NCBI GenBank assembly: GCA_036172245.1
Contig: JAYWIR010000028.1
Span: 868,001-932,000, forward strand
DNA: 64,000 nucleotides
Origin: Raillietiella orientalis
Taxonomy: Eukaryota
Direction: 5' to 3'
Shown: positions 1-64,000 of the stretch, in pieces
Layout of the letters: every line of letters begins with the position of its first letter
How positions within the stretch are numbered: the first letter of the stretch is position 1
Made by a program: the position numbers and the translations under genes
The notes under the pieces: model-generated
Databases searched by the model: none
Told to the model about the DNA's origin: nothing
What the model saw: the letters and a program-made list of their open reading frames with translations, nothing else

Positions 1-2365
1 AGCGAAATTCTGCAACGGGGTAGTGGACCTCGAAACTGGAGAAGACGAACTTTTGTGCGGTTTGTGAAAACTTCTAAGGATAATTTGACAACTCCTCCTA
101 GTTACTTTGGTAGAAGACGCAACCTCTTTCCCACCTTGGACTTTGAGGCAGCAAGGATATGTAGTCATACGCCACCCCTACGGCGTTAATGCTGCTTGTT
201 ACACACAACTGCCCATGGCGGGCATAAGTCGTCCACAGAGTGAACCCCTCTGCCGCATTTTTGGAATGGAGTGAGTAAACGACTGCTTATACCCACAAGT
301 CACGTGTTCTGGTAGGCCCCCTGAATCTATACGATTTGTAAGTCCTGACGAAAGTATGCTATCTACATGGGAGTGCCCTCTAATGCATTTATCCTGCGGA
401 GAGCCAATATGTGGAAGGATTCCATTATTTCCAAATTCTACGATAAAGCACCGTCGCTACCGAAAAAGAATGGGAGTTGGTGCATCGCCTTGGCATGTTT
501 ACGTATATAATGAAGGCAACTTTGTTTGCAGTGGAACGCTCATAGATCTTGACAAAGTCGTGATTTCCAGATCTTGCATCGAACATTCAAGGTGAGCTGC
601 ATCATTTAAGACATAGAGTAAGGAATACTCAGACCACGGGAAATGTTCGTCGAGGCAGGAAAATGGAGAGAAACTTCGCATGCTAATTTTGGAGTCCAAC
701 TATCCGAGGCAGCATTTTTCAGCCCTCAAAAAACGGGAATGGTCATCCTATGGCTGAAGTATCCATTAAATTATACAGAAAGAGTAGCACCAGTATGCTG
801 GAGTGAGACAAAGTTGGTCCATTTTTTCCCTTCCGCTGCTAATCTCTTTCTCTCTCTCTCTCTCTTTTTTTGTAGATATGGTGACCATTCCGATTGCATA
901 ATTGTGGGTATCAATAAAGGAAAAGTGGCTGCCATACCTATGGCAGTGCGGAAATGTGAAAACGAACTATGTGCCACCATGGATACCCGGAATTCCTGTC
1001 CCGTAACTTCATTTTTTCACTTACATTTGTGAACATTTATGAAATCGCTCTAACCATCTCATGTTCTATGTTGACAGACATTGATTCAAGAACCTGATTC
1101 CGAACAGGAGTCAATTCTTGATTCACTTTCGCTCATGATTAAACATTTTAGAGAATCCAGAATATTAATCCCTTTCTGGTCTGCATGCAACGTTCTAAAT
1201 GGAAAGTAGTGGGATTCTCACGTGATCTCGAAACAGCAAACTGCCTTACTACTCTTAAATTCGACAGAGTGCCTAACATAATGGAGGATATCAAAGGTAA
1301 TTCCCAGATGTGATATTACACACTTCATAATGTGATTTTAAAGATACACCCAAGAGGCCTGTCGCAAAGAATTTTTGTAAATTCCAGTGTCCTTTGGGAA
1401 ACTGTTTAGATGAATCTGAGGTTAGTATTTTGTTGGCAGTTGTAGTGCAACATTTTCCCTAGATTTGCAATGGTGTCCAAGACTGCCATGATATGAGTGA
1501 TGAAATGAAATGTGTACTAGGACCACAAGGATGCTTTGGAAATGAAAATTATCCATGCGGTGCGCTTCCATAAACAATCTAATCTGAAAAATAAATGGGT
1601 CTGTAGAATGTGAAGCTGGAGAGATACGTTGCCCACATGGAAAATGTATTGCTCTTGAAGAAGTTTGCAATGGCCGGAGAGACTGTCCAAATGGAGCTGA
1701 TGAAACCCCAGAAATGAACTGCACTTGCCTTCAGTTACTTAAAAGAACAAAGCCACAAGCAGTTTGTAATGGGGTGATTGACTGCCCTTCCAGTACAGAT
1801 GAAGACAGTAATGAATGTGGATGTCACAATGCATTCCGCTGTTATAAGTGAGATTTTTTGCATACGTACTTTGTAATTGAATTTAATTAAAATGCTTTCA
1901 AGAATATTCATAATTCACAACTGTATTTCCCAGGTCAAACGATGGTTCATGCATACACAGAGGAAAAGTATGTGATGGGAAGGCCCACTGTCATAGGGAA
2001 GAAGATGAATTGTTTTGTACAGCTATTGAGCCTTCACCCAACATGAGAGAAAATGTTTTCGGGTAATAGATAAACCACATTTGCACATACATATTCATAT
2101 ATGCACTTACAGAGAGCCACTCACAAAACCTCCGCCAACTTTTGGTTTCCTGCTTTTACGTCGGTATGGAATTTGGTTTACAGCATGTGCAGATGCTTGG
2201 GACAGAATAAGAACCCTGTGGGCATGTGAAGTATTGCAATTGGAATCACCTGAACATGCTCATCATTTTTCCATTGATCCAAAACATGTTGTTATGGATG
2301 GTTCTGTCCATGTATCCTGGTGGGATGGAAAACCATGCAGTCTGGTGTTCATAAGATGTATGTGA
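1..2365 (+). CDS. ndl: Nudel-like modular serine protease, 3' part: LDLa, SRCR-like, degenerate protease domain, 4x LDLa, SRCR-like C-terminus. 5' end lies outside the window.
   Basis: Exons joined in frame by GT-AG introns: <1-59, 102-270, 316-591, 633-812, 876-1002, 1078-1109, 1154-1296, 1344-1420, 1463-1559, 1607-1847, 1934-2062, 2113-2365 (TGA). LDLa motifs: [101 protein letters not shown]. Trypsin-fold motifs: SPWHVYVY...VCSGTLI, PVCW, PFLVC...WKVVGFS. An inactive protease domain followed by four LDLa repeats matches the C-terminal half of Drosophila Nudel. Confidence 0.82.
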
Positions 2366-16300: not shown

Positions 16301-19300
16301 CGTCACCTTGCCTCACTCGGTGGACCTAAAGCAGAGGAGACTGTCGAAAAGGTACAGGGACATTTTTTTTTTTTTTTTTTTCATCTCCTGACTTAATGCT
16401 GCTGCGCACCCTTTTCTTTGCGCGAGGTGACATCCAGTAAACACCGGTAAGCAAAATTACCGAGCCGGAATTTCTCCAATCGCTGCTCGCACGTGATGCA
16501 TGCAGTTATGCAGCATCCAAACGTGAGTTTCCAAGCACGTACGCCAGGGAGCAAGAGCATTCTTGTTTTATCACCTGGCACGAGTTTTCTTGATGGGAGA
16601 CCACGACCACTGCGGAATGTTAAACGAACGGAAGAATGAAGGACACGAGAAACGCGATGGCAGAAGAGCGGTTTCCGGGAGACCTGCTATGGCTGGAAAG
16701 TCTGTTCTGACAAGAAGCTCGCCCGGGAGCAAATGGATTTACCTTGAACAGGGTTTTGAGCATGTAGTTTCCAGCGACCCAGCCGAACATGGCCTCCTCG
16801 ACTCCAGTCAGCACCTTAAAATAGCTGCTTTTGAAAAGAAACCCGGAAGAGCTGAACGCAGAAATCAAACTTTGGACCGTTTCGTTCAAGAGAGTCTCAT
16901 TCGTCAGTCTAGAAAGACAAGAGAGGGAGTAAACCAGGGGTTGCTGAAGCACCGAAGGGAGAGCAAAAAAAAAACAAAATAAGAAACAAAAGTCCACATG
17001 CCTCAGCAATTCGAAGCCTGCACTTCCTCCTGCCAAAATGGGAGTCTTCGCAGCATCCAACTTGATGTGCTTCCTCGCACCCTCGAGGCACTTGCTGATC
17101 AGATCCTGTATCTTTTTTGAATTTTTCGTATGAGACAGGACGCTGCCACCTGCAACGCAAACATTCGTCTCACACTTGTGAAGGATTCTGAAGAACATCC
17201 GCTGGGCGAGAACGTGGCCGTCAAGCGTTTGGCCAGAAAAAAGTCATGTGTTCGCCCCAGAAATCACGCTAATGTTGATTAAACATTTATTAAACGAGCA
17301 GTCATCGCTCCGATGGGAGTGACATTTCGTTCCAGGGAAGGCGGGCGTTATGGAATAAGCATACATACGAGGACGACGGGACAGCCCTGGTGACGGGTGG
17401 GTGGGCTTTCGTTTCACCCTCGAGTACCGAGATTCGGATCAGCAGGAGAAGGGCAATGCAGGAAGCGGCGGACGGATTCAGGCGGCGCAAAACCCAGCGC
17501 GCCAGATTTCGAAACGACAACAGTTATTCGAATCCAGCACGGAACCCGCTATCGGGCCGTTTGTGGTCCACAACCCTCTCTGGAACCAAGGCAGACTTAG
17601 GCGCTGCAATGAGCGATGATTCGCGGTTAAGAAGATGCGGCAAAGATGCCCAGGCAAAGCATAGGATCAGACCACAGGATCAGAATTCCACGGTTCCAGT
17701 CTCAACAACCGTATGCTTCCACGAGGTGAGGAAGAGAGTCTTAAGGTAAAGGAAAAAGGCACGAGCGGTGGAGCAAGCTGTAAGGGGTTTGTGCTGCTTC
17801 ATGAAGCTTCAATTGAACACTGTGGTGATGTCGAGATCAAGTAAAAGATCACTGAGGCGACGAGATGGTTCACCAGCATATCGTGGTTGGCACAATAGCT
17901 GTTTCTACGGATTATGAAGAAGGGACATTATTCCTATTAAAAGGCTCTAATAAGGACACTTTGTTGGATAGAAATTATTATTAAATTCCTTTTCTGTGAA
18001 TAGCTAGTTTTTCGCACATAAAACTAGAGGAATTCGTTTTTCGCCAGTAGAAGAGGAAAAAACACACACACACACACACAATCAGCAGCTCCACAAAATT
18101 TTGGAATACAACTTTTGCCTGCTTTAGTGCTCGATAAAGGAGGGGAGGGGGGGATGGCAGGATGTAACCTCAGGATTCCATGCTTTTGAGTGCCCTCGAC
18201 TTGAGACAAGAATGACAAGGGCTAAGAACGTCGATTTTGCAAACTGAAGGGTTTATTGGTAGGGAACAGATCTTTCTCGAGAGACCCAAGTTTCCAGAGC
18301 CAAATGCATGAGGAGCAAACATTGAGTTTTGCATACCTTTGCAATTAAGAGTGTGGACTTCGGTCATTTCCTCCGTCGCGTTGGGTGCAACCTGGGGCCA
18401 TTTAAACAGAGTCATCTGCGTGTGGTAGGATCCCAGGTCGAAGACGATAGCGTACTGGAAAACAGATGCTGCGGTCAAATCCCGCATTCAAAAAGCGCAG
18501 GTTCCAAGCACATAGCAGACGGCGCCGAGCGACCAGGGACAGCCGATGAACAGATTCTACAATACGAAAAGCCCCTGCCAAACTGCAGGTTGAGGATGGT
18601 GTGCACGATTTGCTTTATCCCAGTGAAAATTTTCAGAAAGCTACTGAAAAACATGAGGGGAAAGGGAGAAAATTCCTTGCGGAAGCACACCGTACGCAGT
18701 GGACTAAGAGGAAAACAGTTTATGTCTTCCTTTTTCCAGTAGGAAAAATTGGCGACAAGTGGGGACATCTTGACTCTAGAAGGAACTGCCCGGATCCTCA
18801 GTCTTTAAGCTGCCGCTACTCTGATAAAACGCAAGCGCTCTTTCTCTGGTGGGGGCGGTAATTCACACCACCTGACTCGATCGTTGCGTTGGCAGCCTGC
18901 AAAGATCGAAAGGGTGAGGGATGAGCATGCCTGAACTTTCGTTCTTTTCCTTTGGCAGCTCGCCGCTAAAGGCGTCGGCTGAGGTTGGAAACCTCTTCCA
19001 AGCATGCTGTGTGTCTTCCGGGCACGGAAAAAGAATTGCCCAATCGCTCCCTCATCCACTAGACGCAAACTGGTCCAGCAGATCGCATGCCTCGGATGCG
19101 GGTCGCAATTTCTCCGGAGGCAAGACGAACGCACGCAAATGCGGAAGTCTGCCCCGGCTAGATCCAGTGCCTGCCTTTTTCCAGAACCAACGTGGTCCAC
19201 TGGTGAGGTGGCTCCTAGTCCTCGCGCGTCCACAGGCCAGGACAAAATGTCTGGCGAGCGATACAGAAGGTTTGTGGGTTGTCATAACGGGAATTGAATT

Positions 19301-23660: not shown

Positions 23661-26600
23661 CAAGAACAAATCTGCAGGTTTTTAGAGTGGGAATCGAATT
23701 CGTTCGAAATGTACCCTGGTTTTGATGGTGATGCTGAACTTTTTCCTCTAACGTTATGGTTCAGTCAAATGCAGTGAATCAAGAGTTTGAAAGTTCAGCC
23801 TGACGGTTCCAAGGTCAATAGTACGAAACGCATGCCACAGTTGTACGCTCTTGAAAACTCCTCAAAGAAATGGAGAAGGTCACAACCGATTTTGCAGCAC
23901 CCATCGTCAGGACACGAAGAGCTGCAAATAATTGCATAAAATCATATGCTTATTGATAAGAATGCAGCAGAAAACCTCCGGAGGTTCGCTGCGTTGCCGA
24001 TTTGTTTTCTTTTACGCCAGCACGAGTGGTGAATTTGCTAAAGGATCGGATTGGTTCCGTCGGCGTCGCCGCAGGACATGAAATCAGCTGTTCCAGAGGC
24101 GATCCAGACAGGTCTGGATCGGTGTGTCGAAATCAGCTGCGCCTGCAATTTGCAAACACCGCGTTCGTGTGTGTGTGTGTGCGTGTGTGTGTGTTTTGCG
24201 TGAAAAAAAAAAAAAACAGACCCCACGTACCGATATGGAGAGGCCAAAGCTAAGCAGAGACGATCTGTCTGCGTCACTGACTTCCAGTCTTTTAAAACCC
24301 TAAGCACGCCGCTGCACTTTTTGAAACTGCCACGGCTGCTTTATGCGAAATCGTATAGGCATTGAGCTTCGCTTACCGATGCCAAGGAGCACCCAGCCAG
24401 GGGTCCTCCCGTACTCGTTACAGTCTATCGTACGACAGGTCCCCCTCCCTTCCGATAGTCGGATGGGGGGGGGGGGGGCAAAAATATTCGTTTCGCACTA
24501 AAACACACGCGCGCGCACTTTTCAAACGCAAACTCCTTTTTGCAAACTCCTTCAATCAAAACGAAAGAGCTTCACTGTGAATAGCAACCTCGGGGGAATT
24601 CAACAAATTTTTTTTTTTTTTTTTTCTTTCCCACCCCCCCCCCCTTTCGACCTTCATTAGTACATTCACACGTACACACTACGTACTCCCAGACATGCTC
24701 TAAATGAACTCAGAAATCACTCGAATCACCATGCCAGTGTAGGTTGCCGTCTGCTACTTGGGAATGGGTTCTCGAATCACATTTTCAAAGTCACTCGTTT
24801 TCTTCCACTAATACATTCCGCAAAGGGGAACTGCGCAGTGTGATTGCAATGTAACCTGCACATGTTTACTCGGGAATATTTAATGTAAACACGGAGGAGG
24901 AGTTTCCACGCACGTGGCGGTGGAAAAAGTAGCCGTTTCCACCGTGGGACGCGTTCTTTGCAAGCGACCGGCGGCTCTGCCTTGGGAGGTGCAAAGACTG
25001 CCGCGCGAATTCGCCGGCATTCCCTCCCAAAATGTCTTTCCCACGTTACGACGGGGAGGTGCAGCGGAAGGGAGAAACTTACTCTTCGGCCGGGTGCTTC
25101 CGGGACGCCAATAACCAAAAGCTTCATTTTAAGGACAGTTTCAAAGAGCGCGGCGACGTGCTTGGGATGCTCCTTGCAGATCCGACGCCGACCCCGCCGG
25201 GAGGAACCTACGAACAGGGAACCCCTTCATACCACTGCCACCTCCAGACAGGACAAGTCCCACGTCAAAATTGCACGTGGACGTTTCAAACAAATCAACA
25301 AGGCATACGGACTTTCTTGCACCTACGGTTTCCTTTTTCTTTTCTTCTTCTTTTCGTTCTGAGAAACCAGTGTTCCGAACTGAATTTCCGGGGATCCCAA
25401 TCAGCTTTGGAATCAGAGATGGCTTTAGAAAAATCATCCATAGGGATGCCGAACTCCGCAAGGATTAGCATGCATCATTCTCTTATCCAAGGCAAGGCTT
25501 AGTTACGTCACAAAACTTACTTACGTCACTTTTCCACAGGAGTTCAATCGGAACACGAATTCAGCTGCCGCCACCCTGCCCCCCCCCCCCCAAATCTACG
25601 CCGCCGATTGACCTTCGATGGCACTTTTGACCACGGAGCGAGGGTTAATCGTGACGTGATTCGAGTTCCCAGTTGTCTTCGACGGTCTGAATTCACTTGC
25701 ATTCCATCTTCTTTTTTTTTTTTTTTTTCCCATCAAACCGCCCGAAACAGGAATTTTCTTTTTCTTCGGGGAAAGCTTCCGGGCGCTCAGGAAAGCTCCG
25801 CTTTCTCGATTCCTCCAGCAGCACAGAGTGCTCCTGAAAAGTTGGGCGCTTGGAGGCGTCGCGACTTCCTTGGGTTGACCCGTGAACCCAAGGAATGCGT
25901 GCTCTTCGGAGTTTGCCGTTCGTCGGGTCTTCGGAGCGGCCTCCAAGGAACCACAAGCATCTCCAGTGACGTGCACTTTCCCAGCTGAGGATGGCGTCCC
26001 GGCAAGCTGGAGGGGAAGAGGGGGAGGACGGAGGCGCCGACTTGCAGCCATTCCGGACAGGCTGTTGGGTCGCACGCGGAAAGCTTTCCCCGAGGCGGTG
26101 ACCACCGTTCTAACGTGAATTTCTGTACCAAGTACTAGCAAGTCACCTGAAACCAAGAGGAACAAAAAAGTACATGTAAGGCACCAAAAAAAATAATTCA
26201 CCGAGAGAAACGAGGAATTATCATGCAGATGGTTATGATTGGTTATGATGCAGCAAAAAACAATGTATTATCCAACAAGACCGTTTATCGATCTCTCTTT
26301 TTTTTTTTTTTTTTCGAAAAGAAAAAAAAAAACACCAAAACACTTCGATTTTTCCCAAGATGTAAGATAACGAAAGCAACATCGACACATTTGAAAATAA
26401 AAAAAAGCAAAAAACTGCCGCTGGCGTGAAGATACTCATACAATGCATAAAGAACAAAGAAATAAATACGAAGGCGTTCAAATCGAAACAAACCTCGAAA
26501 ATTAACGCAGACACTTGGTATGAATAGCACAGTGATGAAAGATAAGGTACAATGCAAAATAAGGCTTAGAAAACGTTACAACATAAGCATGGCATGGGGA

Positions 26601-28815
26601 TGCAAAACCTTCACCACAATCGAAAACTACGTGATCCAAAGAAGATGGCAAATAAAACGCACTCAACAGCGGTACAAAAATTAGATTTGGACTTGGATCT
26701 GGAAATGATTTTAGACATTCATTGGATAACTTCTAAATGTCAGAGACACCATTTACCTAGGTAGATGATACCTAAACAATCCTTTCATTTAGGGTACAAA
26801 CATAATGTGCCTCTACCGCAAAAGTATCCTTACGTAGTGCCAACTTCTGCAATCACACTTTTCGAAAAAAATCTCAAATCATGTTCCCTTCTCACCAACA
26901 CAAATTACAGGAAAACCAGAAAACTCAGGGATACCTTTTACTTTGTCCAGAAAAAATGAATGTAATGTATTACTTGAGTGGAAACTTTTTCTCTTTAAAA
27001 GTTCATTCTCATTCAATCACCCAATAGCTAACAGAAATTAACCAGCTATTCGTATTTGATCTTTTCGAAAAGCTCGGGCAGAGTTCAGATGTGAACCTGA
27101 TGTTTTACACAGAAAATGGTACTGACCGGCAATGCATTAAGATCATTTTCCCGACATTGTTCTGTTCTTTTGATCTTTCCACCGAGCTTACATTTGAGAG
27201 TTTTACAATCATTGAGAATGTATAATCAAAGCTGCTTTACTATGTTAGACTAGATGCCAGAAAAATACCTTCGTAAACTAGATATGTTCCTTGGATCAAT
27301 TGAGCTTGGAAAGTATGGATTTAGTGAGCTCAATTTCAGTAACAAACCTCACGTGCTGATCTTAAAGTATGATGAATACTCGGAACAAATATTCAAAACC
27401 ACTAATGCAAATGAAAAATGGGAAATTCTGCGCGTACAGGTTGCAAATTTAATATTTGAATGTGAAAATCAATGTTTGAGGTAGCTTGCAAAATCTATAC
27501 GTGCATGCAGAATTTGCATGTTCACATATTACATATATGTAAGTAAAGAAAAATGTGCCTTTCATAGGCATACAAACGCTGAACTTTTGCTTGTATGAGA
27601 TCACGAAATGTTTTGCAAAGCTCACATTTTGCAATGTGAGGAGAATAAAGGAGACAAAAACTCTTTGAAAGTTCAGTCTCACCGATCCTCATCCGCTTTC
27701 CGAAACACCATCAGCATCTGAGCATCAAGTTTGTTTTGGAGAAATCTGTAACAGGTTGAAGTTTCGAAAGCTAAAAAAAAAATGCCATCGTTTTTGAAAC
27801 TTCTTCAGCCATCGATCAATCCGACTAAAGATTCTGAGGACACGCAATGATTCGTATCAACCAAAGCACGTAATGCTGATTTCTTTGTCTTCAGTATTCC
27901 GTTCATGTCTTACAAACCACCAGTCATATCATTAAAGTTTGAAATTTCTCCTTTTTCATGTGTTTTTTTATCCCAAGAATTAATTGCAGCTACATTCACG
28001 ATTCCTTCAATAGAACAGGCTTGTTATGCTTCTGTTCCTTTTTTTTTTTTTTTTTTCAAACCTTGCAATGTTACAACCCTCAAATAACAATCATTCGATT
28101 GTATTTTGCATCCAACTGAACTAATAAACAAGGATTTTTGTTTCCAATTTACGTTTTGGTTGTGTTTGCTGCGGTTTGATTTCCTCCATTTCAAAATAGC
28201 ACCGATGTGCTTACTGGTTTTAATTGTCGCATGTAAAAGTACATAAAAACCTAATTATCCTCTTAATGAAAATGTTCAAACAAGAAATATAAGTTATTCA
28301 ATTTTCAAAGCCAGTTTAAGCACCTAGCATTAAAATAATAATCATAGCATTTCAGGAGAAACTAAAATGTACATGCTGTAATTTACAAATACCATAAATT
28401 TATGGATTTTGCAACTTACAATCAGTAAGTTTGCAGAGCATGATTGAATTAATGCATGATGGGTACTCTTTTATTCACATTAATAGAACATTCCGATTGT
28501 GCTTGATAATCCAATCACCAAATAGAATCCTCCAAGAAGTAGGCCAGGATGAGTACTTTGATCTGGAACATGGAAATCTAGTCTAGTGCATTATGGCTTA
28601 AAAAAAATAAAATTGTGCAATCAAGCAGATTACATTGGATACAAATTGCGTCACACAAAAAACTATTTTGCTGAGCTTTTTTAATTTTACATTATTTCGA
28701 CACTGCTCAGAAGGCTGAAACTGGTAGTATTTCTTTAACAATCCCAATTGAAAGCAACATGTATAAGAATTGCAGTAATTATACTTACTGAAAACAATAT
28801 GTATATATACATACA

Positions 28816-28821
28816 TTTATT
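28816..28821 (-). promoter_or_regulatory. Candidate polyadenylation signal of Prp19
   Basis: AATAAA on the minus strand about 285 nt after the TGA at 29104. Confidence 0.4.
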
Positions 28822-29103
28822 TACAACATGTATAAATATATAGAGATGAGAATTGTTAGCAAACTGAATTTAGTTGAAAATGGACGTCAGCATTCCAGAA
28901 AACACGAACTGGCACTGAACAAACAAAATGCTTTTAGCTTAACTGCCTTTTAGAATTCGGAAAATTATGTAAGAAAGAATTCAATAAAAACACGATTCGT
29001 ATAAACCATTTTTGCAATGCACATAAAAATCTATTTTCCAAAATTTATGTAATTTTGGCATTTTTCCAAGTTAAGTTTAAATGATCTAGGTTTTAACTGC
29101 TTT

Positions 29104-32100
29104 TCATGGTCCATACAACTTAAGTGTGCGATCCATGCTGGTGGACAAGATAAACTGTGCATTCAAACCAAAACGCACACCAGTAGCCATGGCTGTGTGA
29201 TCATTAAAAACTTTCAACTCTTGCCATTGCTTGCACAAGTAAATTCTGTGAAGAGATTAAAGTACTTTTAATTCATATTCATCCCAACTTACCTAATATC
29301 TGTGCCAGCAACAGCCAGATATGTGCCACTTTGATCAAAACAAAGATCCCTGATTTCATAACCTTCATCTAACTGAAGTGTTCTGAAATTTTTCAGTTTC
29401 CGTAAATCCCATAATTTAACACATGCATCATCAGCTGCAGTAGCTAAGTAATATCCATTCTCAGAGAATGCTAACGCAGTCACTTGTCCTACATGACCAG
29501 GAAAATTAGCTACATTTGTCCTTTCCTTGAGATCCCAAATTTTGATAAGAGCATCTGAAGTGCCTGTTCCAAAAATAAGTCCATCTGGATGAAACTGCGC
29601 TGAAGTCAGCTCAGCACCACTGGCAGCATCTGATACTTTGGTCAACACATGACCTGTGCGAATGTCTGAAAAAGCCCAGTGTTCATCTGTTGAGGCAGAT
29701 AGCAGATAGTCTCCAGTAGCATGAAGTGACAGCCCTGTGATGGGACCATCATGTGCCCTAATCAACTGTAAAGTTTGAGATGAGGCTACATTCCAAACAC
29801 GTATGGTAGCATCTGGTGATGCTGTAATCACTGTGTCTTCTGTTGGATGATAAGCCACCTTTGTGACCTTTTTGGTATGGCCCTTAAGGACAGCCACTAC
29901 TTGTTCTGTGTCCTTGTTGAATACAGTGGCATTTTTATCGTTTCCACCAGTCAATACACGTCGGCAATCAGATGCGCAAATGTCCAAGGCTAAAATACCA
30001 GGGATACTGGCACTGTGCAGACCTGGATGAGAAGCTAATGTGTGATAAGATCGAAGCATATCAACAGTTGCCAAATCTTCTGGTACTGTCTTGCCACGCT
30101 TCTTTCTTTCCTGGGTAAGCACAGTAGCCTTTTCTTGAAGCTTCTCGATAACTTCCTTTGTAATGCCCGCTTCTTCCATTGGCTGTTGAGCCACACCAAC
30201 TGCTTCCAATCCAACTTGGGGTTGCATCAATTGTCCAGCAGCTGCAATGCCAGCCTGTGGTTTAAGAGTGGCTAAAGCTTCACGTGCAGCTGTGAGCTCC
30301 TTTGACAACCTGGCTATGACCCTGCATGCTGCATCATGCTGATATAGAGCATGGCTAAACAAATGAAGATGAAATACGATATGAAATAGGAGATCAATTC
30401 ACCTTAGCTCTTGACGAGCTGTTTGCAATTGTTGACGTAGAGCAAAGCTATGCAGCATAACTGCATCCCATTCATCTTGCAACAACTTCAAAATGGCAGG
30501 AATACTAGTTGCAGAAGGAGGTTTTGGTTTCACAATAGGAGCAGCTAGATCAAATGAAATAGCAATATAGCAATATCAGTGATCACTTTACTTTTGACTT
30601 CAATAAGCAAATCATTGGTGAGCTCCTTGCCACTGATGGGATCCACACCATTCTCGTTTAAATACTTTTCTATGAGACGGCGCTCAAAAATACAACCAGA
30701 TGAAGGTGAAATCACAGGTTGCTCAGGTACTTCATTACTCACTGAAAGCAAAATACTTAATACCTTTAATCCAATTAATCCGATTCTTGTTTTATGAAAC
30801 AATCTTTTTTAGAAACATTCAAAAAATTATTCATGGGAAATATGTGTCGGTCCAATTTTGGCAAAATCAAAGACTATGCATCACCAAGATACAAAAGTGG
30901 CAAATTAAGTATCAAAGAAATCTAGTCACATGAATTCATCATTTTACTTATTATATGTATACTTATATGAGAACCCTCCATATAGAGAATCTAAGATTAA
31001 CTGCACTCAGTCAAAGAATGGTTGAGCACAAGAATCACTGAAAGAAATACTATTAAAAGAATACACACATAGCTAAGACAGCACTTTTAGTTTTGTTTTA
31101 TTCCAACAACTTCAGTTATTTAGATAGTTTTAAAATCCAAATTTTGTAAAATTTGAGGAAATTGAATTTCAACAAAGAAAAAAAATAAATGCAAACAATC
31201 ACATCAAAACTATGATGATACTCTGCAGGTGAAATCACAATTATTTTACTTTCATTTAATAATGCCAAATATAGAATGATTCAAACCTACTGTATACCAA
31301 TTACAATGATTAGGTACAGACTGATTTAATACCATAACTGCTGCCCTTGTAGGATGCAAACGAACCTTAAACTAAAAAAACGTTTTGCGTAACCTACTTG
31401 TATTTTCATGCACTCATTGCACATTACAGATCATTTATATGATCACAATGACCATTAGAAATGAAACTGTGCCAAAATAACCCAGACCAAACACACAGAA
31501 TGTATGATACCAGAGAATTCTTTGAGTTATACTTAAAAGATATCCATGTGGGTTCATCACTAAGAATTCCAATTAAACACTGCTCTTTACGTTCACGTTT
31601 CAAGCTGACTGCTCTATATGCCAACTGTGGTCTACTTTCAAAATGTGAAGATAAAACCATGTGCTTTACTGCTGCCTGCTTTACATTTATGGTAATTTCA
31701 TAGCAAAGAATTTGAAATGCTATACATTTGTGAAGTTCATACCTGAGAATATTTTCAGAACTTTAGATGATACTCTTAATTACTGAATTTCAGAGAAAAT
31801 AAATAACAAAAATGAATAACAAACCACACTTTCTTTAACATATCTGATTTCAACCAATTATCAAAATGCAAAACCAAATCAATTCATGTGAACATCAATA
31901 TTCAATAGTCTTCAATGCTGAAATTTAAAATCAATACAAACACTTTCGGTGAGTGACATTTTAATACAGTCCTACACTTAGTAAAACTGATTACATATGT
32001 AGGAATGCATCAAAATATAACCTCTACATTTGTCAATTTGGCAGGAGTGACAATATCTTTTGACTTCCTTACTAACTGATCATCTATCTTACTTAGACAA

Positions 32101-32933
32101 CTTCAATGATAAATATGAAAATCAAAAATATCATGTCAATGCTGATCACATATTGATGTTTGCATCACAACTTTCTTACTTCTAGCCAAAGAAACAAGAA
32201 TTTCAGACCTGAATCTGCTAGTTTATGTACCAGTCGTTGATCATCGGGGTACTACTCGCTGCTCAATTTATGTTTGGTTTTTTTCAACTTGTTTTGGAAA
32301 TTAAACAAACATACTCAAGGCTACTTTTCATATGACATCCTTCAGATATTTTGCTTAAATTCATTGCTCTCTTATAGAAATTAAAACAAAAACACTGGAA
32401 AAGTTCTATGACGCATTTTTATGGAATTTATAGTGAAAGGTTCTTCGACCTTAACAACGTAGAAGTAATATTTTGTCAAAATGAACCATAATATTAAGAA
32501 ACTGAAGCAGAAATAATACACTGCATTACTATCACCTCAAATGGTCAAGTTTAAACCGAATAATTCCATTATTCTAAGAAAACCAATAAACCTTTTGGAT
32601 TTATAGCCCATTTTTCAAAATTCAATCATTATTATTGGCCTCATTTACTAATATATTTTTTAAGCACTATTTCAAGGTTCCTCTTTTTCTGTTAATAGCA
32701 CTACTTAGCATGCAATACATAAAATATACTAAAACAATCAACTTGCTGAGGCTATGTCAGTAAGAACTGCAACACATGCACACATTATGCAAAGACCCAG
32801 TAATGATTAACCTGAAGAAATTTACGAAATTTCCACACATTTATATTGAAATGAGGCTAATTGACTCTTAATTGGAAATTACGTATTTGATAAAAGCAAA
32901 AAGCTGATACTTACATGCACATATCAACGCCAT
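29104..32933 (-). CDS. Prp19: Pre-mRNA-processing factor 19 (U-box, coiled coil, WD40), 504 aa
   Basis: Exons 32933-32915 (MALICA), 30741-30592, 30544-30403, 30354-29293, 29245-29104; total 1515 nt. U-box [27 protein letters not shown]; coiled coil [53 protein letters not shown] repeats ([32 protein letters not shown]); ends [11 protein letters not shown]. Confidence 0.98.
31498..31649 (-). ncRNA. Candidate box H/ACA sno/scaRNA A in Prp19 intron 1
   Basis: 5' hairpin (lower stem ttcacattt/aaacgtgaa, upper stem agttggc/gtcagct); H box AGAGCA at 31586-31581, about 16 nt from the upper stem; 3' hairpin (tgat...atca closing, cttttaag/ctcaaag apex); ACA at 31503-31501 followed by 3 nt. About 152 nt, same strand as the host gene. 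Confidence 0.55.
31995..32138 (-). ncRNA. Candidate box H/ACA sno/scaRNA B in Prp19 intron 1
   Basis: 3' hairpin aggaa-gtcaaaagatat...atattttgat-gca-ttcct followed directly by ACA+3 (32000-31998); H-box-like AGATGA at 32085-32080; weaker 5' hairpin (gaca/tgtc, tgata/tatca). Confidence 0.4.
32287..32433 (-). ncRNA. Candidate box H/ACA sno/scaRNA C in Prp19 intron 1
   Basis: 5' hairpin with upper stem ataaaaatgc/gtgtttttgt ending 15 nt before H box AGAGCA (32370-32365); 3' hairpin aagcaaaatatctgaagg/ccttgagtatgtttgttt; ACA at 32292-32290. About 147 nt. Confidence 0.5.
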
Positions 32934-34569
32934 TAATGTCAGGGTAATAGGCAACTTGAAACCGAATTCCGAGCACACATCTAAACGGCAAAGATTCCGC
33001 GTTCACAAAGGTACCACGTTTATTTTTAAAGAACATTAAAAGCTTATATACCTACTAATATGAGTGAATACCTTAAGTTGGTGTTAGTTCTTCGTGGAAG
33101 AAATGAAACATATAGTGTTTCTATATTCTCTGGAAAAACTAAATATGACTTAAAACAAAATGAGAAATCACATTAGTAATTTTGTAATGTCCTTAATTTA
33201 CGCACAAAAGTATATTCTTAATTTATAAAACTTCTCAATTTGATTATTGTATTACATTACTGCATTGTGATCACAATGAAATTGTTATTATATTTAAATG
33301 CAGTTATTTCACACAAATAGATTCATTGATCGTATTAAAAGAGCATATTATCATAATAAGAATAATAGAGAACTACCTTTGATGTCACGATATGCCTTCT
33401 ATCTAGATGATTCCAAACAAAAAGGAGACATTATCTCACATAAAAGCAAAGAAGCATGGAGAGAAAAGTCAAATTAAATTGAACTGAGTAAATGAGCAAT
33501 GTTAGTATTTTCGTTTTTGAAAAACTGTAGTTGAATATGGTTCTACAGAGTACTGTTAGTCATAAAAATAAAATTAATTGTACCATTTTATCATTCCCTG
33601 TTTATCATACGAAATATTTTGAAAAATAAATGCAAAATATAAGGAATAATTGTTTTCAGGTAGAATTAAAGGTGATTTTATGAGGAAACTCCAAGACATC
33701 GCTTCTGTATTGTCTCCCCTAATGGGGAATCATCACTTTTTAATTTCATTGTATCACCAGTTGATCAACGTGAATAAAGTAGACAGTAACACTTTGCAGA
33801 AATCAGGAGGCTTCTGTTATCATTTTTATGAAGAAATATCTGTTAAAATCTTATCTGTTCAAAAGTCTGTATCCTACTCCTTCAGACTATTGATTCAGAT
33901 CTATTTTAATGTCATTAGTCTATGAGTTACCTATTATTCGAAGGGAATATATGCAAAGATCATGTTTCAGCGGGAATTAACAACAAGCATTGTGATCAGC
34001 TAAAGTAAACAAATGTGCTTTACAGAGATATGTACTAGGGATGCCAACTAAGTGTAGCTCAGGACCCATGGATTCATGATGCTGTATTTTTCATGAGTTT
34101 GCTCTCAGAAATTACTGAGTTGTCATCTATTAGATTTACGGATACTGCAACGACTGGTATATGGAAAGCAATGAGAAAAACGTGAGAGGGAATATTGAAT
34201 AACTGATTGTTCTTTCGAAGCTTCAATTACTCTTTAGTAGATTCAAAAAGTTTGCAGTTAACAATTGGAAATTATATTAGATTACTTGCAATGCTTTCTT
34301 TGAGCTCATTTTATTGCATTTATACATTTCATATTGATCCGTATAGTTTATATAAAGCGTAATACTTCGGTGAGGCATGGCTTAATTGTTTCTCAAGTTC
34401 TGAAATGTACTCTTCAGTAATCATTGTGCTACTGATTGTTTATTTGCGTCTACATTAAGGTGCACAAAGTTCGTGCCCAATATGAAATTCTTTACATGAT
34501 AAACCTACATCTAAATGAATCTTAATGCACTTTGTTTTTATCTATTCTTCATATGTTTGCTTCCTTTCT

Positions 34570-42577: not shown

Positions 42578-42583
42578 TTTATT
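42578..42583 (-). promoter_or_regulatory. Candidate polyadenylation signal of Spaetzle-like gene A
   Basis: AATAAA on the minus strand about 180 nt after the stop at 42762. Confidence 0.45.
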
Positions 42584-42761: not shown

Positions 42762-44395
42762 TCAGTGTTTGTCGGAGAACGCATCGACTTGGCAAGAGCA
42801 TGATGAGGGTAACCGAAAGCTTTCTATCGAGAAGGGAAAGTACTGATTGTAAGGATCGAAAACGAGGAGCTTATGGTAGACGTTTTTCTGAACGGATTCA
42901 GACCCATAGCAATCCGGAATCAACGGGCAAGGTTTTCCGGGCTCGTTGCAAATTTCGATACGAACACTTTGAGTGAACTCATCGTAGTCGACCTTCACGT
43001 GGTTGACGATGAACCGCCAGCTTCCTTGCACATTCAGTGCCCTCACGGGCTGGATGTAATCAACGACCGAAGGGGACAAAGAAATTTCCTCTGACAGGTG
43101 GTGGAGCTCATCGACTGACGCTTGAGTGTCGAGTCCAGCTATGTCTGCATAAAATTCCAGGAACCGCTGCTGATACTCTTTGATGGCGTACTTCAGTTCG
43201 GATCTGAGTGCGCGCATAAAAACAAGCTCCTTGGGAATGCAACACTTACAGAGGATACTGATCATCTTCGGTACACCACGTAGTGTTGGTTAATCGAGCG
43301 CAAGCAGGGATTTCTTCTTTATGTGATGGCTTGTACTGTCTCCCATACTCGGCATAGGATGGCCTGGGACGATGCTTCGCATGAGCGGGATGCTCGTAGC
43401 CAGGACGCGAAGGATGAAGCCGTGTAGCTATGGCGACGTTTAATACTGCGGTGGCACTCTGGAAATCATTCGCAAATGCATTAAGGTCGAAGGATAGCTA
43501 GAGATCTGGAATCTTAGCTAATCTGGAAAGTCACTCCGTTTCAGCTAGACAGAAATCGTTTCGTGCAATGCTGCGGCCAAGCCGAAAAAGAGATTCAAAG
43601 AAAGAAAGAAATTTTCCCTAAATTCTATATTTGCCCGTATCCCATCCGTATGCCTTTTTTTTTTTTTTTTAGATTCCAGCTCTTTTTTCCGATGCAGAAA
43701 TTCTGTATCGCCGTGCCTTCCGCAACGTAAAGAAAAGCAAAGAATCCGACCTCATGCATGCCGCTCATTGCCATCTTGAACTCTGCAGCCCCACTTTTCG
43801 ACTCAGCCAATCAGAACTTTCATTTGAAACACCAGACAGATTCGACATTACAGATTTACTGTTCGTTTCCTCTCCAGGAAGTACTCACAAATCTTCCTCA
43901 CTGATTCCCCAGTGAGTTCTCAGTCAAAACTGCGGAATTGAACGGCAAACATCGTTTCAATGAAAAACGGGGGTGGGGGTGGGTGGGAGGAAACTTCACC
44001 TTCCACTCACGCACTTTGCATGCTTCAGCCGAATTCACCAAAGAATCAGCATTTCAGATACGTTTCCTTTTAACCAACGCTAGAAGGAGATCATTGCTCA
44101 CAAAGTTGCAGATTCCGACCGAGTCAGAGATCAGCAGGAACCCCCTGCACTCTTCCTAATCAATTTTTTTCTCCCCTCAGATCGCTTTCCATTAGGATTC
44201 AAATAGGATGGTACTCGCATAAATGGGAATTTCCGCTTAGACACTATCGGAATTTTCTAAAATGCAGATGGGCTTCAGTTGAACCCCTCAGTTTCCGGCA
44301 CACGGTGTGGCAAAAAATGCTCTGTACCGCACAACATTTCACTATCTGGCGCTGTAACAACGCAATGAAACACTTACCAATATGTACAAAATCAT
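42762..44395 (-). CDS. Spaetzle/neurotrophin-like secreted cystine-knot protein A, 222 aa
   Basis: Exons 44395-44378 (MILYIL), 43458-43250, 43203-42762; total 669 nt. Signal peptide MILYILSATAVLNVAIA; pro-domain motif PAC...TWCTEDDQYP; knot domain with PVRALNVQGSWRFIVN, TQSVRIEIC, PC, VQK...HKLLVFDP, FRLPSSCSC. Confidence 0.92.
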
Positions 44396-59200: not shown

Positions 59201-62200
59201 TGTTGAAGAATGGTAAAGGAGAGGATGAGAAAATACATCAAACTCTTCCGAAGATGCGTTCGGAGATCATTGAGCGTATAGAAGCACCCAAGAAGCAAAG
59301 GAAGGCCATCAAGAACGAAAGCTTCATCCTGCTTGTGCCTCCCTAGATGGCATCGAAAACAAAGGCCCTCAAGGCTTGTTCACGGATCCAGGAACCTTTC
59401 TGAGAAGATTTCCTAGGGTCCAGTTCCAGGATTTTTTCTTCCTCATTTTGCAATCCCGTCTGCAGTGAGTTTCGGCTACTGAGGTTCCAGATTCCCAGAA
59501 TTTCTCTAGCCTTAGGTAAAACCACGAAATTCCATCAAGATCTTTTTGGATATTGACGGATATTCGCTTCCTCCATTACACAGGCGAGTGGTCCGTTGGG
59601 AGGCTTCGAGTGGGGAAAAGGAGAAGAGTTCATGAGATCCGGGGAACACAGAGACTGATTAATCTTTGCGAGCTCCCCCGCGACCCCGCAGGGACATATA
59701 AGAGTCTCAAAGGACGCAAACGAATCTTTCCGAACTCCGAGACCGGAAACCGTCGAAATGGAAGGGAGAAGGAAGGAGAAAGGCCAGCAGCGGCAGAGAA
59801 ACCTGGATCAAGAAGAGTTAGCAAGGAGATAGGTGGAGTGGCGGCAGCGGTCACCCCTTTATGTGGCAGGGTAGGATGGGATCAGGGGCATGCCCGCAGC
59901 ATCCGTGCTACGAGGGAGGCGATCAGGATGCTTTCTACTCGCTAGGGATCGCTTCGGTTCAGTCTCCAGGTTCGTAGAAATCTCCTTCCCCGTCGTCAAC
60001 GCAGAGCCGCTCATGATCTCGCGACACCGGCAACCACGACGCCACGCAGAGGGTCACAACGAGCCATCGAGCTCCTCTGCCTTTGGACCCTTCGGCAGCG
60101 ATAGGTTGACAGTGAATCTTCGGGAAGCTCTGTGCTGAAACCAGCTGATCTGGTTGTCTCCAGTCCCGGCAGAAGCATGAAAAGAGAAAGAGGCGACGAG
60201 TGCAGTGAAGATGAAGATGGCGAATTAAAAACAGGGATGACAAACGAAAGCTGACCGATGCTTTCGAAATCTTCCTGGGACATGAAGAATGGATCGTTGC
60301 CATGTCCAGGTATAGGTAATGAACGCGGAGAGCGGGACTTGGAGGTCCATCGGGAGGGATGGAGCGATTCCTGATCCGATGTAGTCTCCTAGCAACGACG
60401 AGTCCTTCTTGCTCACTGTCTCGAGTTCCTAAGGGCGACGAGCTGAGGGAGCGAAGATCGCTTCCAAGAGGATTCGCTTTCCATCCTCCTCCGGAATTTT
60501 GGAGGAAGCGCGCGAACGTCGAGCCTTCCTGAATACGGGATGATGGAAAATTGCGGAGCTCGCAGGAGGAACCTCCGAGGACGGGACCGGCGTCCTCGCC
60601 ACCCGCCAAGCATCGGGATGGAGGATAATGAGGATGGAGGCGGCTGCATCAGAAGACTTCGTCGGCAAGAGGGGGGAGCCGACTCTGCGCGCTCTCACGG
60701 CTCCTGCAGTTGCACAGTCAGTGCCCTCCGCGGCTCGCCCTGATGGTTTATGGAGGAACGTTCGCGGTGCGTGGCGGACGGGGCTGCCCTCGCACCCCAC
60801 CTACGTATCCTCGGCTTGTGGCAAGGAAACAACAAATACAGCCCCTCCTGCCCTTCCTGTCCTTCTTCTCCGTTCGCACTTTCCGGCGCGACGGCTCTCG
60901 AGGATGCTGCGCTCCCCTCCATTCTTTGATTACCAGCACCATGGAGTTCTTCTGTGGGACGGAAAGGAGGAGTGGAAGGAGGCTCCAGTGTTGGAGGCGA
61001 GAAGCAATCTGCAGCCTTTTTTCGGTAAACGCACAGGACGGATGGTGCCTGAAGCCAGGGGGTCGGGAAGAGCCAGTGGGCCATACGAGGCTAAGCAAGC
61101 TGATGGTCCAGGGGAGACCTCGTTTCTCATTCCTCTGGCTTCCTGGGAAACGAAAGGAGGAAAGGAACCGTCTGTGGGAGTCTCCCTGGTCTCTGAAGGA
61201 CACGGTTGGGGATGACTTTTCTTGCTCCCGGAAAGGGCGTGCGCCGCGAAGGATCGCTTCCTTATGCGGCGGTTCCGTGAGCTGCAAGGAAGGAGAAGCA
61301 GAGAAGCAGGAGGAATACGAGGCTGCTTCTTTGTCGGAGGAGGAGGAAGAAGCGGTCCTGACTCCCGACGCTCTTCGTTTCCGGCACACTGGGAAACGCG
61401 TGCCCTGTCACCAGGCAACTCGAGATCTGCCTTCGCTTGGAGGTTGCCCCGGAGTTCGCAGATGGCAGAAAAGCCCTTCACCCGACGGCCGGCTTCTACC
61501 CCTACCACAGCCAGGCCGCACTTTCGGAGGCTCGACGGGGACCATGGACGGAGAACGCCCCAGAATCTTCTTAGTGAGGAGAAGAGTGGTTTTCTCCTCA
61601 AAGAAGGCACCCGCAAAACAAGCAGAAGAAGGAGGAGGAGGAGGAGGAAAAGGGAGGGGGCTCCTTGCTTGTGCTCTTTGGACTTTTTTCTTCCGTTTCA
61701 CGCGACCATAGCCAAAGATGCAGAGACGCGTTTTCATCCTTCTCCGAAAAACAGCCTCTGGGGATACTCGGAAGGTGCTTTTCCCTGCAGCAGAAGCCAC
61801 AGTTCCTGTCATCCGGGAAGCGATTCCGGTTTCGATCCTCCTTCCCGTGTCCTTCGGCGGGATTCTCAGGACAGGACGTGGAACCGGAAGAGAAGTCTCG
61901 TCCGAACCTGGGGCTGGAATTCTCGGGACATGGACCGCCTGAGTCTTCGAGACGCGCAGGAAGACTCCCTTTTGCTTGTCATTTTTCATCGCGAAAGGAA
62001 GAGGATGTCTTTCGCCTGAGGGCTGGCAGCTCGTCCGCAGAGCGCCGGAGGGGTGAGGGCGGCTGCGAAGAACATCCGCGGCTCTGCAGGAAAGGGAAAG
62101 GAAGGTGGGAGGAGGTGAGGAAGAGGCGGAGGAGAGTGAGGGAGACGAAGAGCGGACGGAATTCTCCAGGGTGGGTCCGAGAGCCGCCGCGGCCGCCGAT

Positions 62201-62222
62201 TCCGCAACCTTTCGGGTGATGC

Positions 62223-62249
62223 GCGGCGGCGGCGGCGGCGGCGGCGGCG
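62223..62249. repeat. (GGC)n repeat in the GC-rich island upstream of Spaetzle-like gene B
   Basis: About 8-9 tandem GGC units. Confidence 0.9.
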
Positions 62250-62645
62250 TTGCATCATCCCGCGCACGCGCGTGAGCCGCGGCGGCCGCGGCGTCATCTC
62301 CGTCGCTTCGGGTGTGTCCCTCGATCTGGCGCGCCCTATCACGCCCACGGGGAGGTTGCGAAACGGCCAGCTGGACCATCTGGCAGCTCCACTTCGGTAC
62401 GCTTGCCCAAGAGTGAAAGGCGCCGGAGACTCCACTGCCGGTCCCCGAAGGAGGCAGGAAGGGGGAGGGGGAGGGGAGGAGGAGAAAGAGCCTTTCCTCG
62501 CGGCGAGCAGCAGCCAGGATAAAAAGTCTCTGTCCACCTCTCAGCTGCCCAGTGGAGTCGCGAAGTCGGCGCGTGCACGCAGTTTTTCGACGGACCCTTC
62601 TTCCTCTTCCTCCCCGTCCTCCCTCCGGAGCTGCTGACGGGAAAC

Positions 62646-64000
62646 ATGGTCCTCCACGCCTGGGTACGTTGCCACCGATCCTCCTTCGCCTCCCGCGCTC
62701 GCGAAGCTCCGTCGTCTCCCGTTCGCTCCTCCTTCCCCTCCTGGCCTCTGGAACGGGAAGGAGGGGGAGGGGGAAGCAGGAAGACTCGCGCTCCTGGGAG
62801 CGCAGTTTGCCTCGGGCTTCCCACCCAGTGAAAGATGCGGGCGCAAGGAGCAGGATGGGGTGAGACAGAAGAAAGTAGGGTGGAGAAGAGGATGAAACCG
62901 GAAGCGTTCCCTTGAGTTCCTCCAGGGGCACTGGTCCTCGTTCTCCTACCCTCTCGTCTCTGTCCCCCGCCGTTCCATCCCGTCCTCGTCTCCCCGAAGG
63001 GCCTCTCGTCCTGGCGGAAGGAGGTGCAACAGGGAGAAACTGGGGACTCAGGAGGGGGAATGTGTCCGAAGAGAAGGTTCAAGGGTCATCTCCCTCCCTG
63101 CCCCTGTTCCTTCCCGGAATCCCTCGCATCTTTTCTAACGTCCCCTCCCCTCCGTCTTCTTTTAGATCCTGGCTCTGTGCGCCACCATCTTGGACGCGGG
63201 AGCTCCCTACGAGCCTAACAAGAGGCACCCTGGGGGCAAATACGACTACTGCAACCCTCTGAAGCCGCCCCTGTGCGCAGGGAAGCACAACATCAGCTTC
63301 TGCCTCGAGGACCCGGAGTACCCGCTGTACGAAGTGCAGGTGACTGAGCTCCTGGTCTGCGGGGTGGGCGGGGTGGGGCTGGGAGAGGGAGTGCTTCTGT
63401 GCGGTACCCCTTGGAGGCCGTGGGCGGGGAGGGACGAGATGGAAGCTCCTCCACGAGCCCTGGCACCTCTTCCTGCCCTGCGGCGTCAGGCCCTTCCTTC
63501 CGGACCGGCTGCACACCGCCTCTGCTCCTCCGTCCTACCCACACCGAGTTTCACCTACTGCACGGTCCCGCGCCCTCGCTGCCCACGCGCGACCGAGCTA
63601 TTTCCCGAGCTAACAGAGGCCCCTCCTACTTCTCTTCCCGGCACGTGATCCCAGACGGCCATCAAAGAGGACCAGTACCTTGACCAGAAGTATTCAGACA
63701 TCCCTGATCAGTCGGCCAACGACCTAGTGGACGGCATCTCCCAGGCCGCCGAGAGGAACTTCGCCTACGAGTTCTACACGGGCGCGTCCACGGGGCCCTC
63801 GCGCTACGACGAGACCCACTGGATTGGGCCCGAGGGCTACATCTGCCCCAGCGAGGTGACCTACGCGACCCCGCGCCGAGCGAGGAACGCGGCCGGGGAG
63901 TGGAGGGTCATCGTGAACGACGTCGAGTACTACGGGCGGACCTACACGCAGACCGTCCGTATGGAAGCCTGTCTCTTCCCGGGGTCAGCCTGCAGGCTCC
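62646..64000 (+). CDS. Spaetzle/neurotrophin-like secreted cystine-knot protein B (runs off the window end)
   Basis: Exons 62646-62663 (MVLHAW, donor gtacgt; inferred), 63166-63339, 63655->64000. Signal peptide MVLHAWILALCATILDAGA; PPLC...SFCLEDPEYP; DQKYSD...DLVDG; GYICPSEVTYATPRRARNAAGEWRVIVNDV...YTQTVRMEACLFPGSACRL. TATA-like GATAAAAA near 62518. Confidence 0.92.

Follow-up and report, generated by a model that had tools for sequence, protein, structure and literature searches.

Within the window, the whole 64,000-nt stretch of Raillietiella orientalis DNA analysed here, we confirmed a Spaetzle gene (hereafter gene A) that carries serines in place of both cysteines of the threading disulfide, Cys I and Cys IV. 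A knot of six cysteines is regarded as the defining feature of Spaetzle and the neurotrophins, and gene A, judged from its sequence, is by descent a member of the Spaetzle family that fails this structural definition. On sequence and modelling grounds, the interpretation that we consider slightly more probable than its negation is that gene A is a live, fast-evolving Spaetzle keeping only two ring disulfides together with a dimer cysteine. Below we set out the gene model and its neighbourhood, the distribution of the double-serine state among relatives, the balance of constraint and acceleration on the gene A lineage, and the precedents that bear on how a protein of this kind might work.

Gene structure, serine register and genomic neighbourhood

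Gene A is a small three-exon gene on the minus strand, extending from approximately 43774 to 42762 and encoding a Spaetzle-domain protein (Table 1). Its last exon is held in an open frame (42762..43289, minus strand) which reads ...EEISLSPSVVDY...IEICNEPGKPCPLIPDCYGSESVQK...PSSCSCQVDAFSDKH up to the stop codon. Two candidate ends of exon 1 give gene models of 224 or 232 codons, close in length to the nearest homologues (227 and 237 residues), and neither contains an internal stop; the open reading frame described as intact in the initial annotation is thus open across three exons in both models. The same annotation had also described the splice sites as intact, which is true of intron 2, a canonical intron; in intron 1 the acceptor reads TTTCCAG and both candidate donors are weak or non-consensus. 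A run of about 16 T residues (43650-43672 on the plus strand; A on the gene A strand) lies inside the proposed intron 1. Exon 2 encodes the end of a putative signal peptide and part of the pro-region, including two cysteines (PAC...WC) and a DDQYP motif; the pro-region is homologous to that of two ostracod proteins, P0001 and P0002, both of which have counterparts of the PAC..C..D.EYP region. The exon model has a hydrophobic N-terminus as judged by eye, with exon 1 uncertain. A polyadenylation-like signal, also reported previously, does lie past the stop, while the reported TATA box was not confirmed, since the 926 nt preceding the ATG contain a single TATA-like hexamer (TATATA), at a distance of 717 nt.

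Table 1. Features of gene A and of its paralogue in the 64,000-nt window (coordinates are window positions).
Feature	Position	Strand	Details
Candidate exon 1	43751..43774	-	ATG at 43774, 8 codons, donor GAG/GTCGGA
Alternative exon 1 end	43727	-	donor TAC/GTTGCG, 16 codons
Exon 2	43250..43458	-	acceptor TTTCCAG/AGT, donor CT/GTAAGT
Intron 2	43204..43249	-	46 nt, canonical, GTAAGT...CAG
Exon 3	42762..43203	-	remaining pro-region, Spaetzle domain, TGA stop (42764..42762)
Spaetzle domain PF16077	42786..43076	-	ORF residues 72-168, Pfam E 2.5e-23
Ser at Cys I position	43074..43076	-	TCC
Cys II (IEIC)	42948..42950	-	TGC
Cys III (KPC)	42927..42929	-	TGC
Extra loop Cys (PDCY), presumed interchain disulfide	42909..42911	-	TGC; role inferred
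Ser at Cys IV position	42894..42896	-	TCC
Cys V and Cys VI (CSC)	42792..42800	-	TGC TCT TGC
AATAAA polyadenylation-like signal	42578..42583	-	178 nt past gene A stop
Paralogue B, Spaetzle domain	63769..63999	+	GYICPSE; Pfam E 4.4e-11; window end cuts gene

When aligned to the Pfam Spaetzle HMM, gene A scores 82.9 bits against a curated cut-off of 27, which places it in the family, and among Pfam matches with E values up to 1 it matches Spaetzle alone, with no IL-17 profile. The protein reads EEISLSPS and GSESVQK around the two serines, whose assignment to the Cys I and Cys IV positions was proposed initially and is agreed upon by three alignments. First, phmmer comparison with Drosophila Spaetzle C-106 (3e07_A, 4bv4_L; E 3.3e-5 for the single-sequence match to the Drosophila structures) places them opposite the FLC and PIC cysteines. 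Second, a gap-free alignment with P0001 and P0002 places them opposite the cysteines of YICPS and xxCLQK. Third, a profile built from 43 family members leaves the register against Drosophila Spaetzle unchanged (E 1.3e-12). Both codons are TCC as originally described (read at 43076..43074 and 42896..42894), and the other knot cysteines and the PDCY cysteine are likewise intact. All five of these remaining domain cysteines (IEIC, KPC, PDCY, SCSC) use TGC, so that each serine is a single G-to-C step from the gene's own cysteine codon. Knot positions II, III, V and VI are therefore occupied by cysteine and positions I and IV by serine. In growth-factor knots, Cys I-IV forms the penetrating bond and II-V and III-VI form the ring (PMC3328748), in agreement with the threading role that had been assigned to the Cys I-Cys IV pair.

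A second Spaetzle gene, paralogue B, lies approximately 20 kb from gene A on the opposite strand. It belongs to another subfamily, retains Cys I-III, shares about 44% identity with gene A over 80 aligned columns, and by eye appears nearer to P0031 than to the subfamily of gene A. The region from 60000 to 64000 is GC-rich (0.57-0.65) and carries many long overlapping ORFs on both strands with no Pfam match, the longest being 556 aa (61411-63078, minus strand); these may represent a pro-region of paralogue B that is long and of low complexity, or an artefact of base composition. Near the start of the window (275-2063, plus strand), ORF pieces match DUF1986 (275-592, E 1.5e-6) and LDL-receptor class A repeats (1588-1848, E 8.4e-10; 1914-2063, E 4.8e-6), a combination typical of Nudel-type modular serine proteases. 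Such proteases head the dorsoventral cascade whose last step is the cleavage of Spaetzle, and this region looks like the end of a Nudel-type protease gene situated some 40 kb from the Spaetzle genes. Other loci in the window include a large Prp19 exon (29292-30398, minus strand; WD40_Prp19 E 4.4e-103), for which the best database identity is 77%, spread over many arthropod orders, with no close relative among the 120 matches listed; this exon sits within an AT-rich block (26000-34000, GC 0.30-0.37) with flanks of 0.50-0.60. An ORF at 16623-17243 (minus strand) matches GDA1/CD39 nucleoside phosphatases (E 1.3e-6), probably as a single exon of an apyrase-like gene. The window ORFs of 105 aa or more included no recognisable Toll gene.

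Relatives of gene A and rarity of the double-serine state

The closest homologues of gene A were found in ostracods, namely P0001 from Darwinula stevensoni (59% identity) and P0002 from Cyprideis torosa (58%), each of which has seven domain cysteines, with cysteine at the positions where gene A has serine; as to taxonomic affinity, the ostracod origin of these hits gives no more than a hint. A word-indexed search for proteins of near length returned two proteins at E <= 0.001 among five candidates; the search for longer relatives yielded none at E 1e-20 among 114 candidates, and an exhaustive profile search identified 1056 proteins at E <= 0.001. Together with these ostracod proteins, gene A can be placed by shared features in a pancrustacean seven-cysteine subfamily, characterized by the pro-region motifs PAC..C..D.EYP and LYAD, the CPLIPDCY loop, the domain motifs QK..YH, FPF.IESFRLP and C.C, and a domain alignment free of gaps. 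Named members of this subfamily are annotated as uncharacterized, including XP_050691859.1 from the crab Eriocheir sinensis and XP_023329791.1 from the copepod Eurytemora. Contrary to gene A, which has serine at all three positions, these crab, copepod and ostracod proteins all keep Cys I, Cys IV and a tyrosine two residues before Cys I.

To count how often the knot positions vary, we re-aligned the best 150 of the 1056 proteins, together with the query rows, to the domain HMM, which yielded 162 domain hits; all counts that follow refer to this set. The full seven-cysteine pattern (C-C-C-C-C-C-C) occurs in 53 of the 162 hits and the pattern S-C-C-C-S-C-C in one, gene A itself. All six knot columns are covered in 104 hits, of which 101 have six cysteines, and gene A is alone among these complete domains in having lost both Cys I and Cys IV. 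The other two exceptions comprise P0143, an alignment effect in which a cysteine is shifted by one column, and P0146, which has serine in the Cys I column only. When the requirement is relaxed to coverage of Cys I and Cys IV (117 hits), both cysteines are present in 113, and the additional exceptions, P0133 and P0083, are fragments that end early or become garbled. A metagenome scan with gene A recovered one locus, L001, at 29% identity. Neither the protein searches (best 150 of 1056) nor the metagenome scan produced a second Ser/Ser protein or an orthologue in the same state, and a literature search for Spaetzle proteins lacking knot cysteines found none among the papers listed, which is not proof of absence in print.

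We also considered whether the extra loop cysteine (PDCY) substitutes in register for a lost knot cysteine. This candidate was excluded as a replacement for Cys IV: 53 related domains combine the PDCY cysteine with both Cys I and Cys IV, and it is therefore an old feature of the subfamily. Conserved in the subfamily, it brings the cysteine count of the gene A domain to an odd number (5). A comparable extra cysteine is found in Aedes aegypti Spaetzle1C (PDB 7b1c, 7b1b), where Cys-59 of the Cys III-IV loop is engaged in an intermolecular disulfide (PMC9427763). Profile alignment puts the PDCY cysteine in the same loop, though the two do not share an HMMER column and differ in their spacing to Cys IV (x5 in Spz1C versus x4 in gene A). 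Unlike gene A, Spz1C keeps the full knot as well as a central dimer cysteine. Drosophila Spaetzle C-106 (PDB 3e07, 4bv4, 4lxr) offers a second comparison: its domain is homologous and shares the Cys II, III, V and VI framework, but it keeps Cys I and Cys IV, has a dimer cysteine beside Cys V (SCCKC) where gene A has serine, and has serine opposite the PDCY cysteine (phmmer alignment). Given that the subfamily has serine in place of the Drosophila-type dimer cysteine next to Cys V, we infer by analogy that PDCY may provide the interchain dimer bond of the gene A product. A homodimer prediction with two copies of residues 38-146 gave a score of 0.00, which speaks neither for nor against binding.

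Constraint and acceleration on the gene A lineage

Among columns at least 90% conserved, gene A keeps 24 of 29, the five deviations being the tyrosine-to-serine change two residues before Cys I, the two cysteine-to-serine changes, one R>K and one D>N. Measured against the family consensus, gene A differs in 19% of the most conserved columns, in 26% and 58% of the two intermediate classes and in 77% of the most variable columns, a gradient of the same kind as in intact relatives. Where P0001 and P0002 agree, changes specific to gene A fall in 12 of 58 conserved columns (those with a residue common to at least 70% of the family) compared to 27 of 60 variable columns, corresponding to a depletion in conserved columns with an odds ratio of 0.32 (Fisher p 0.006). 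Furthermore, the majority of the 12 conserved-column changes are conservative substitutions (H>Y, L>F, V>I, R>K, F>L, Y>F, D>N).

At the same time the lineage is fast. The end branch of gene A carries 0.9 changes per column, 6-7 times as many as those of P0001 and P0002 (0.12 and 0.14) and compared to a family median of 0.47; the grouping of gene A with these two proteins has an SH-aLRT value of only 82. In Tajima-type comparisons, 21-32 unique changes were counted in gene A versus 6-17 in the ostracod proteins, the difference reaching p<0.005 with 6 of the 8 outgroups in either comparison (P0021 gave p 0.013-0.02 and P0011 was not significant); gene A thus changes at 3-4 times the rate of P0001 and P0002. 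Deviations from the top-conserved columns amount to 6 of 31 in gene A and to 0-3 in most relatives, with similar numbers in P0037 (6 of 34) and P0038 (9 of 37). The initial claim of a live gene rather than decay finds support in the depletion of changes in conserved columns, but has to be set against a markedly accelerated lineage.

This acceleration makes early decay a real rival, as the integrity of the ORF only weakly excludes neutral drift. In substitution-only neutral simulations of the last exon, the frame stayed open in 14% of runs at 22 amino-acid changes and in 7% at 30; with up to 14% of neutral runs remaining open, frame integrity is weak evidence on its own, and the depletion of changes in conserved columns carries more weight. 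Relaxed constraint on a duplicate or orthologue, heading toward a pseudogene with its frame not yet hit, would fit the 3-4-fold excess of lineage-specific changes and the long end branch, the loss of a bond that is otherwise almost invariant among the best 150 of 1056 relatives along with changes in 6 of 31 top-conserved columns, the simulated survival of open frames, the weak donors of intron 1, and the lack of a same-state orthologue in the protein searches (best 150 of 1056) and metagenome scan. Against this, changes avoid conserved columns and are mostly conservative where they do fall at conserved sites, the 224-232 codons are free of stops and frameshifts, and intron 2 has a canonical form. 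The identity of the changed residues also argues against indiscriminate loss: two changes among seven domain cysteines would fall on the Cys I-Cys IV pair in one of 21 ways, and both became serine. Of the 8 non-synonymous changes open to TGC in a single step, 2 give serine. On balance we judge relaxed constraint to be an unlikely explanation, albeit the strongest of the alternatives.

Less probable again, and in our view improbable, is that the unknotted protein has ceased to be an agonist and serves as a Toll-signalling decoy or antagonist, or as a repurposed structural protein. Fast sequence evolution and the predicted unpinning of the N-terminal strand would be in keeping with such a role, as would a linker before the domain that contains no Arg or Lys (SVDE in gene A, SVDR in P0001 and P0002). 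However, linkers without a basic residue are also found in intact relatives, e.g. P0004, P0014 and P0020, and the SVDR-to-SVDE change was for this reason dropped as evidence of a lost activation site. IL-17 is an agonist cytokine, and remains one without the same bond; the replacement of that bond by serines is documented (PMC4517768). Finally, sequencing or assembly errors or a rare allele, with TGC at both sites in the normal gene, are very improbable: although each change involves a single base, two independent G-to-C changes on bonded cysteine codons 180 nt apart would be very unlikely as errors, and adjacent residues differ as well (TYIC to ISLS; TKC/TSC to SES), in keeping with an old change.

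Predicted fold, precedents and implications

With 43 alignment rows for the exon-3 product, AlphaFold2 returned a model with a mean pLDDT of 89 and a pTM of 0.78, the blocks of the domain reaching 89-97. In Foldseek searches of the PDB, this model matched the NGF and NT-3 neurotrophins (E ~1e-6), followed by horseshoe-crab coagulogen (3.6e-4) and Spaetzle 3e07 (9e-4), with a weak match to IL-17A/F (E 0.05-0.14). Since AlphaFold2 is guided by the alignment and does not register the loss of a disulfide, the model shows that the sequence of gene A is compatible with an NGF-like Spaetzle fold and has no bearing on stability without the bond.

A working unknotted protein is made plausible by two precedents. 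The first is IL-17, whose invertebrate members have a third knot disulfide where chordate members carry two serines (PMC4517768). Chordate IL-17 possesses, and gene A is predicted to possess, an NGF-like knot fold in which the four ring cysteines are kept and the third disulfide is represented by two serines; this is a resemblance in pattern rather than common descent, and there is no sequence relationship between them. They differ in extent as well, in that the Ser/Ser state is old and fixed across a clade in chordate IL-17, compared to one gene in one genome here. The second precedent is provided by knot-disulfide mutants of VEGF-A, which keep their structure, the fold being essentially unchanged after the loss of one bond (Muller 2002, as summarised in PMC3328748). 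These mutants are laboratory-made and belong to another knot family, whereas gene A is a natural variant.

Returning to the interpretation of gene A as a live Spaetzle, we propose that it is a pancrustacean seven-cysteine Spaetzle in which Cys I and Cys IV were replaced by serine on its own lineage, each replacement requiring one G-to-C change from TGC to TCC. Loss of one partner would have left the second cysteine free, and as such a liability, which may then have favoured its replacement as well; the change of the conserved tyrosine two residues before Cys I to serine would have accompanied the loss of the knot bond. The product would be secreted as a pro-protein and would retain the NGF/Spaetzle fold in its C-terminal domain, held by the ring disulfides Cys II-V and III-VI and dimerized through the loop cysteine of PDCY, with an N-terminal strand that would lose its covalent anchorage through the ring. 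Its function would most likely still be that of a cytokine-like ligand for a Toll-type receptor, with changes in stability, activation or specificity, and its solution would be the same as that of chordate IL-17. For the more specific proposal, that gene A encodes a working Toll-pathway cytokine which lost the penetrating Cys I-IV bond independently through the double Cys-to-Ser route of chordate IL-17, we consider the case for and against to be evenly poised.

Although the practical value of a single gene in a single genome is modest, the biological interest stems from the near invariance of the knot in the near family (101 of 104 complete domains among the best 150 of 1056 proteins). If live, gene A represents a natural experiment on the purpose of the knot, be it folding, stability, or control of the N-terminal strand, which sits near the pro-domain and the receptor. 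If the proposed history is true, this would be the second independent replacement of a cysteine pair by serines, after IL-17, and would indicate that the knot is dispensable in the Spaetzle family too. Gene A would then constitute a natural Spaetzle variant whose folding, activation or receptor behaviour is altered, and might act as a modulator of Toll signalling.
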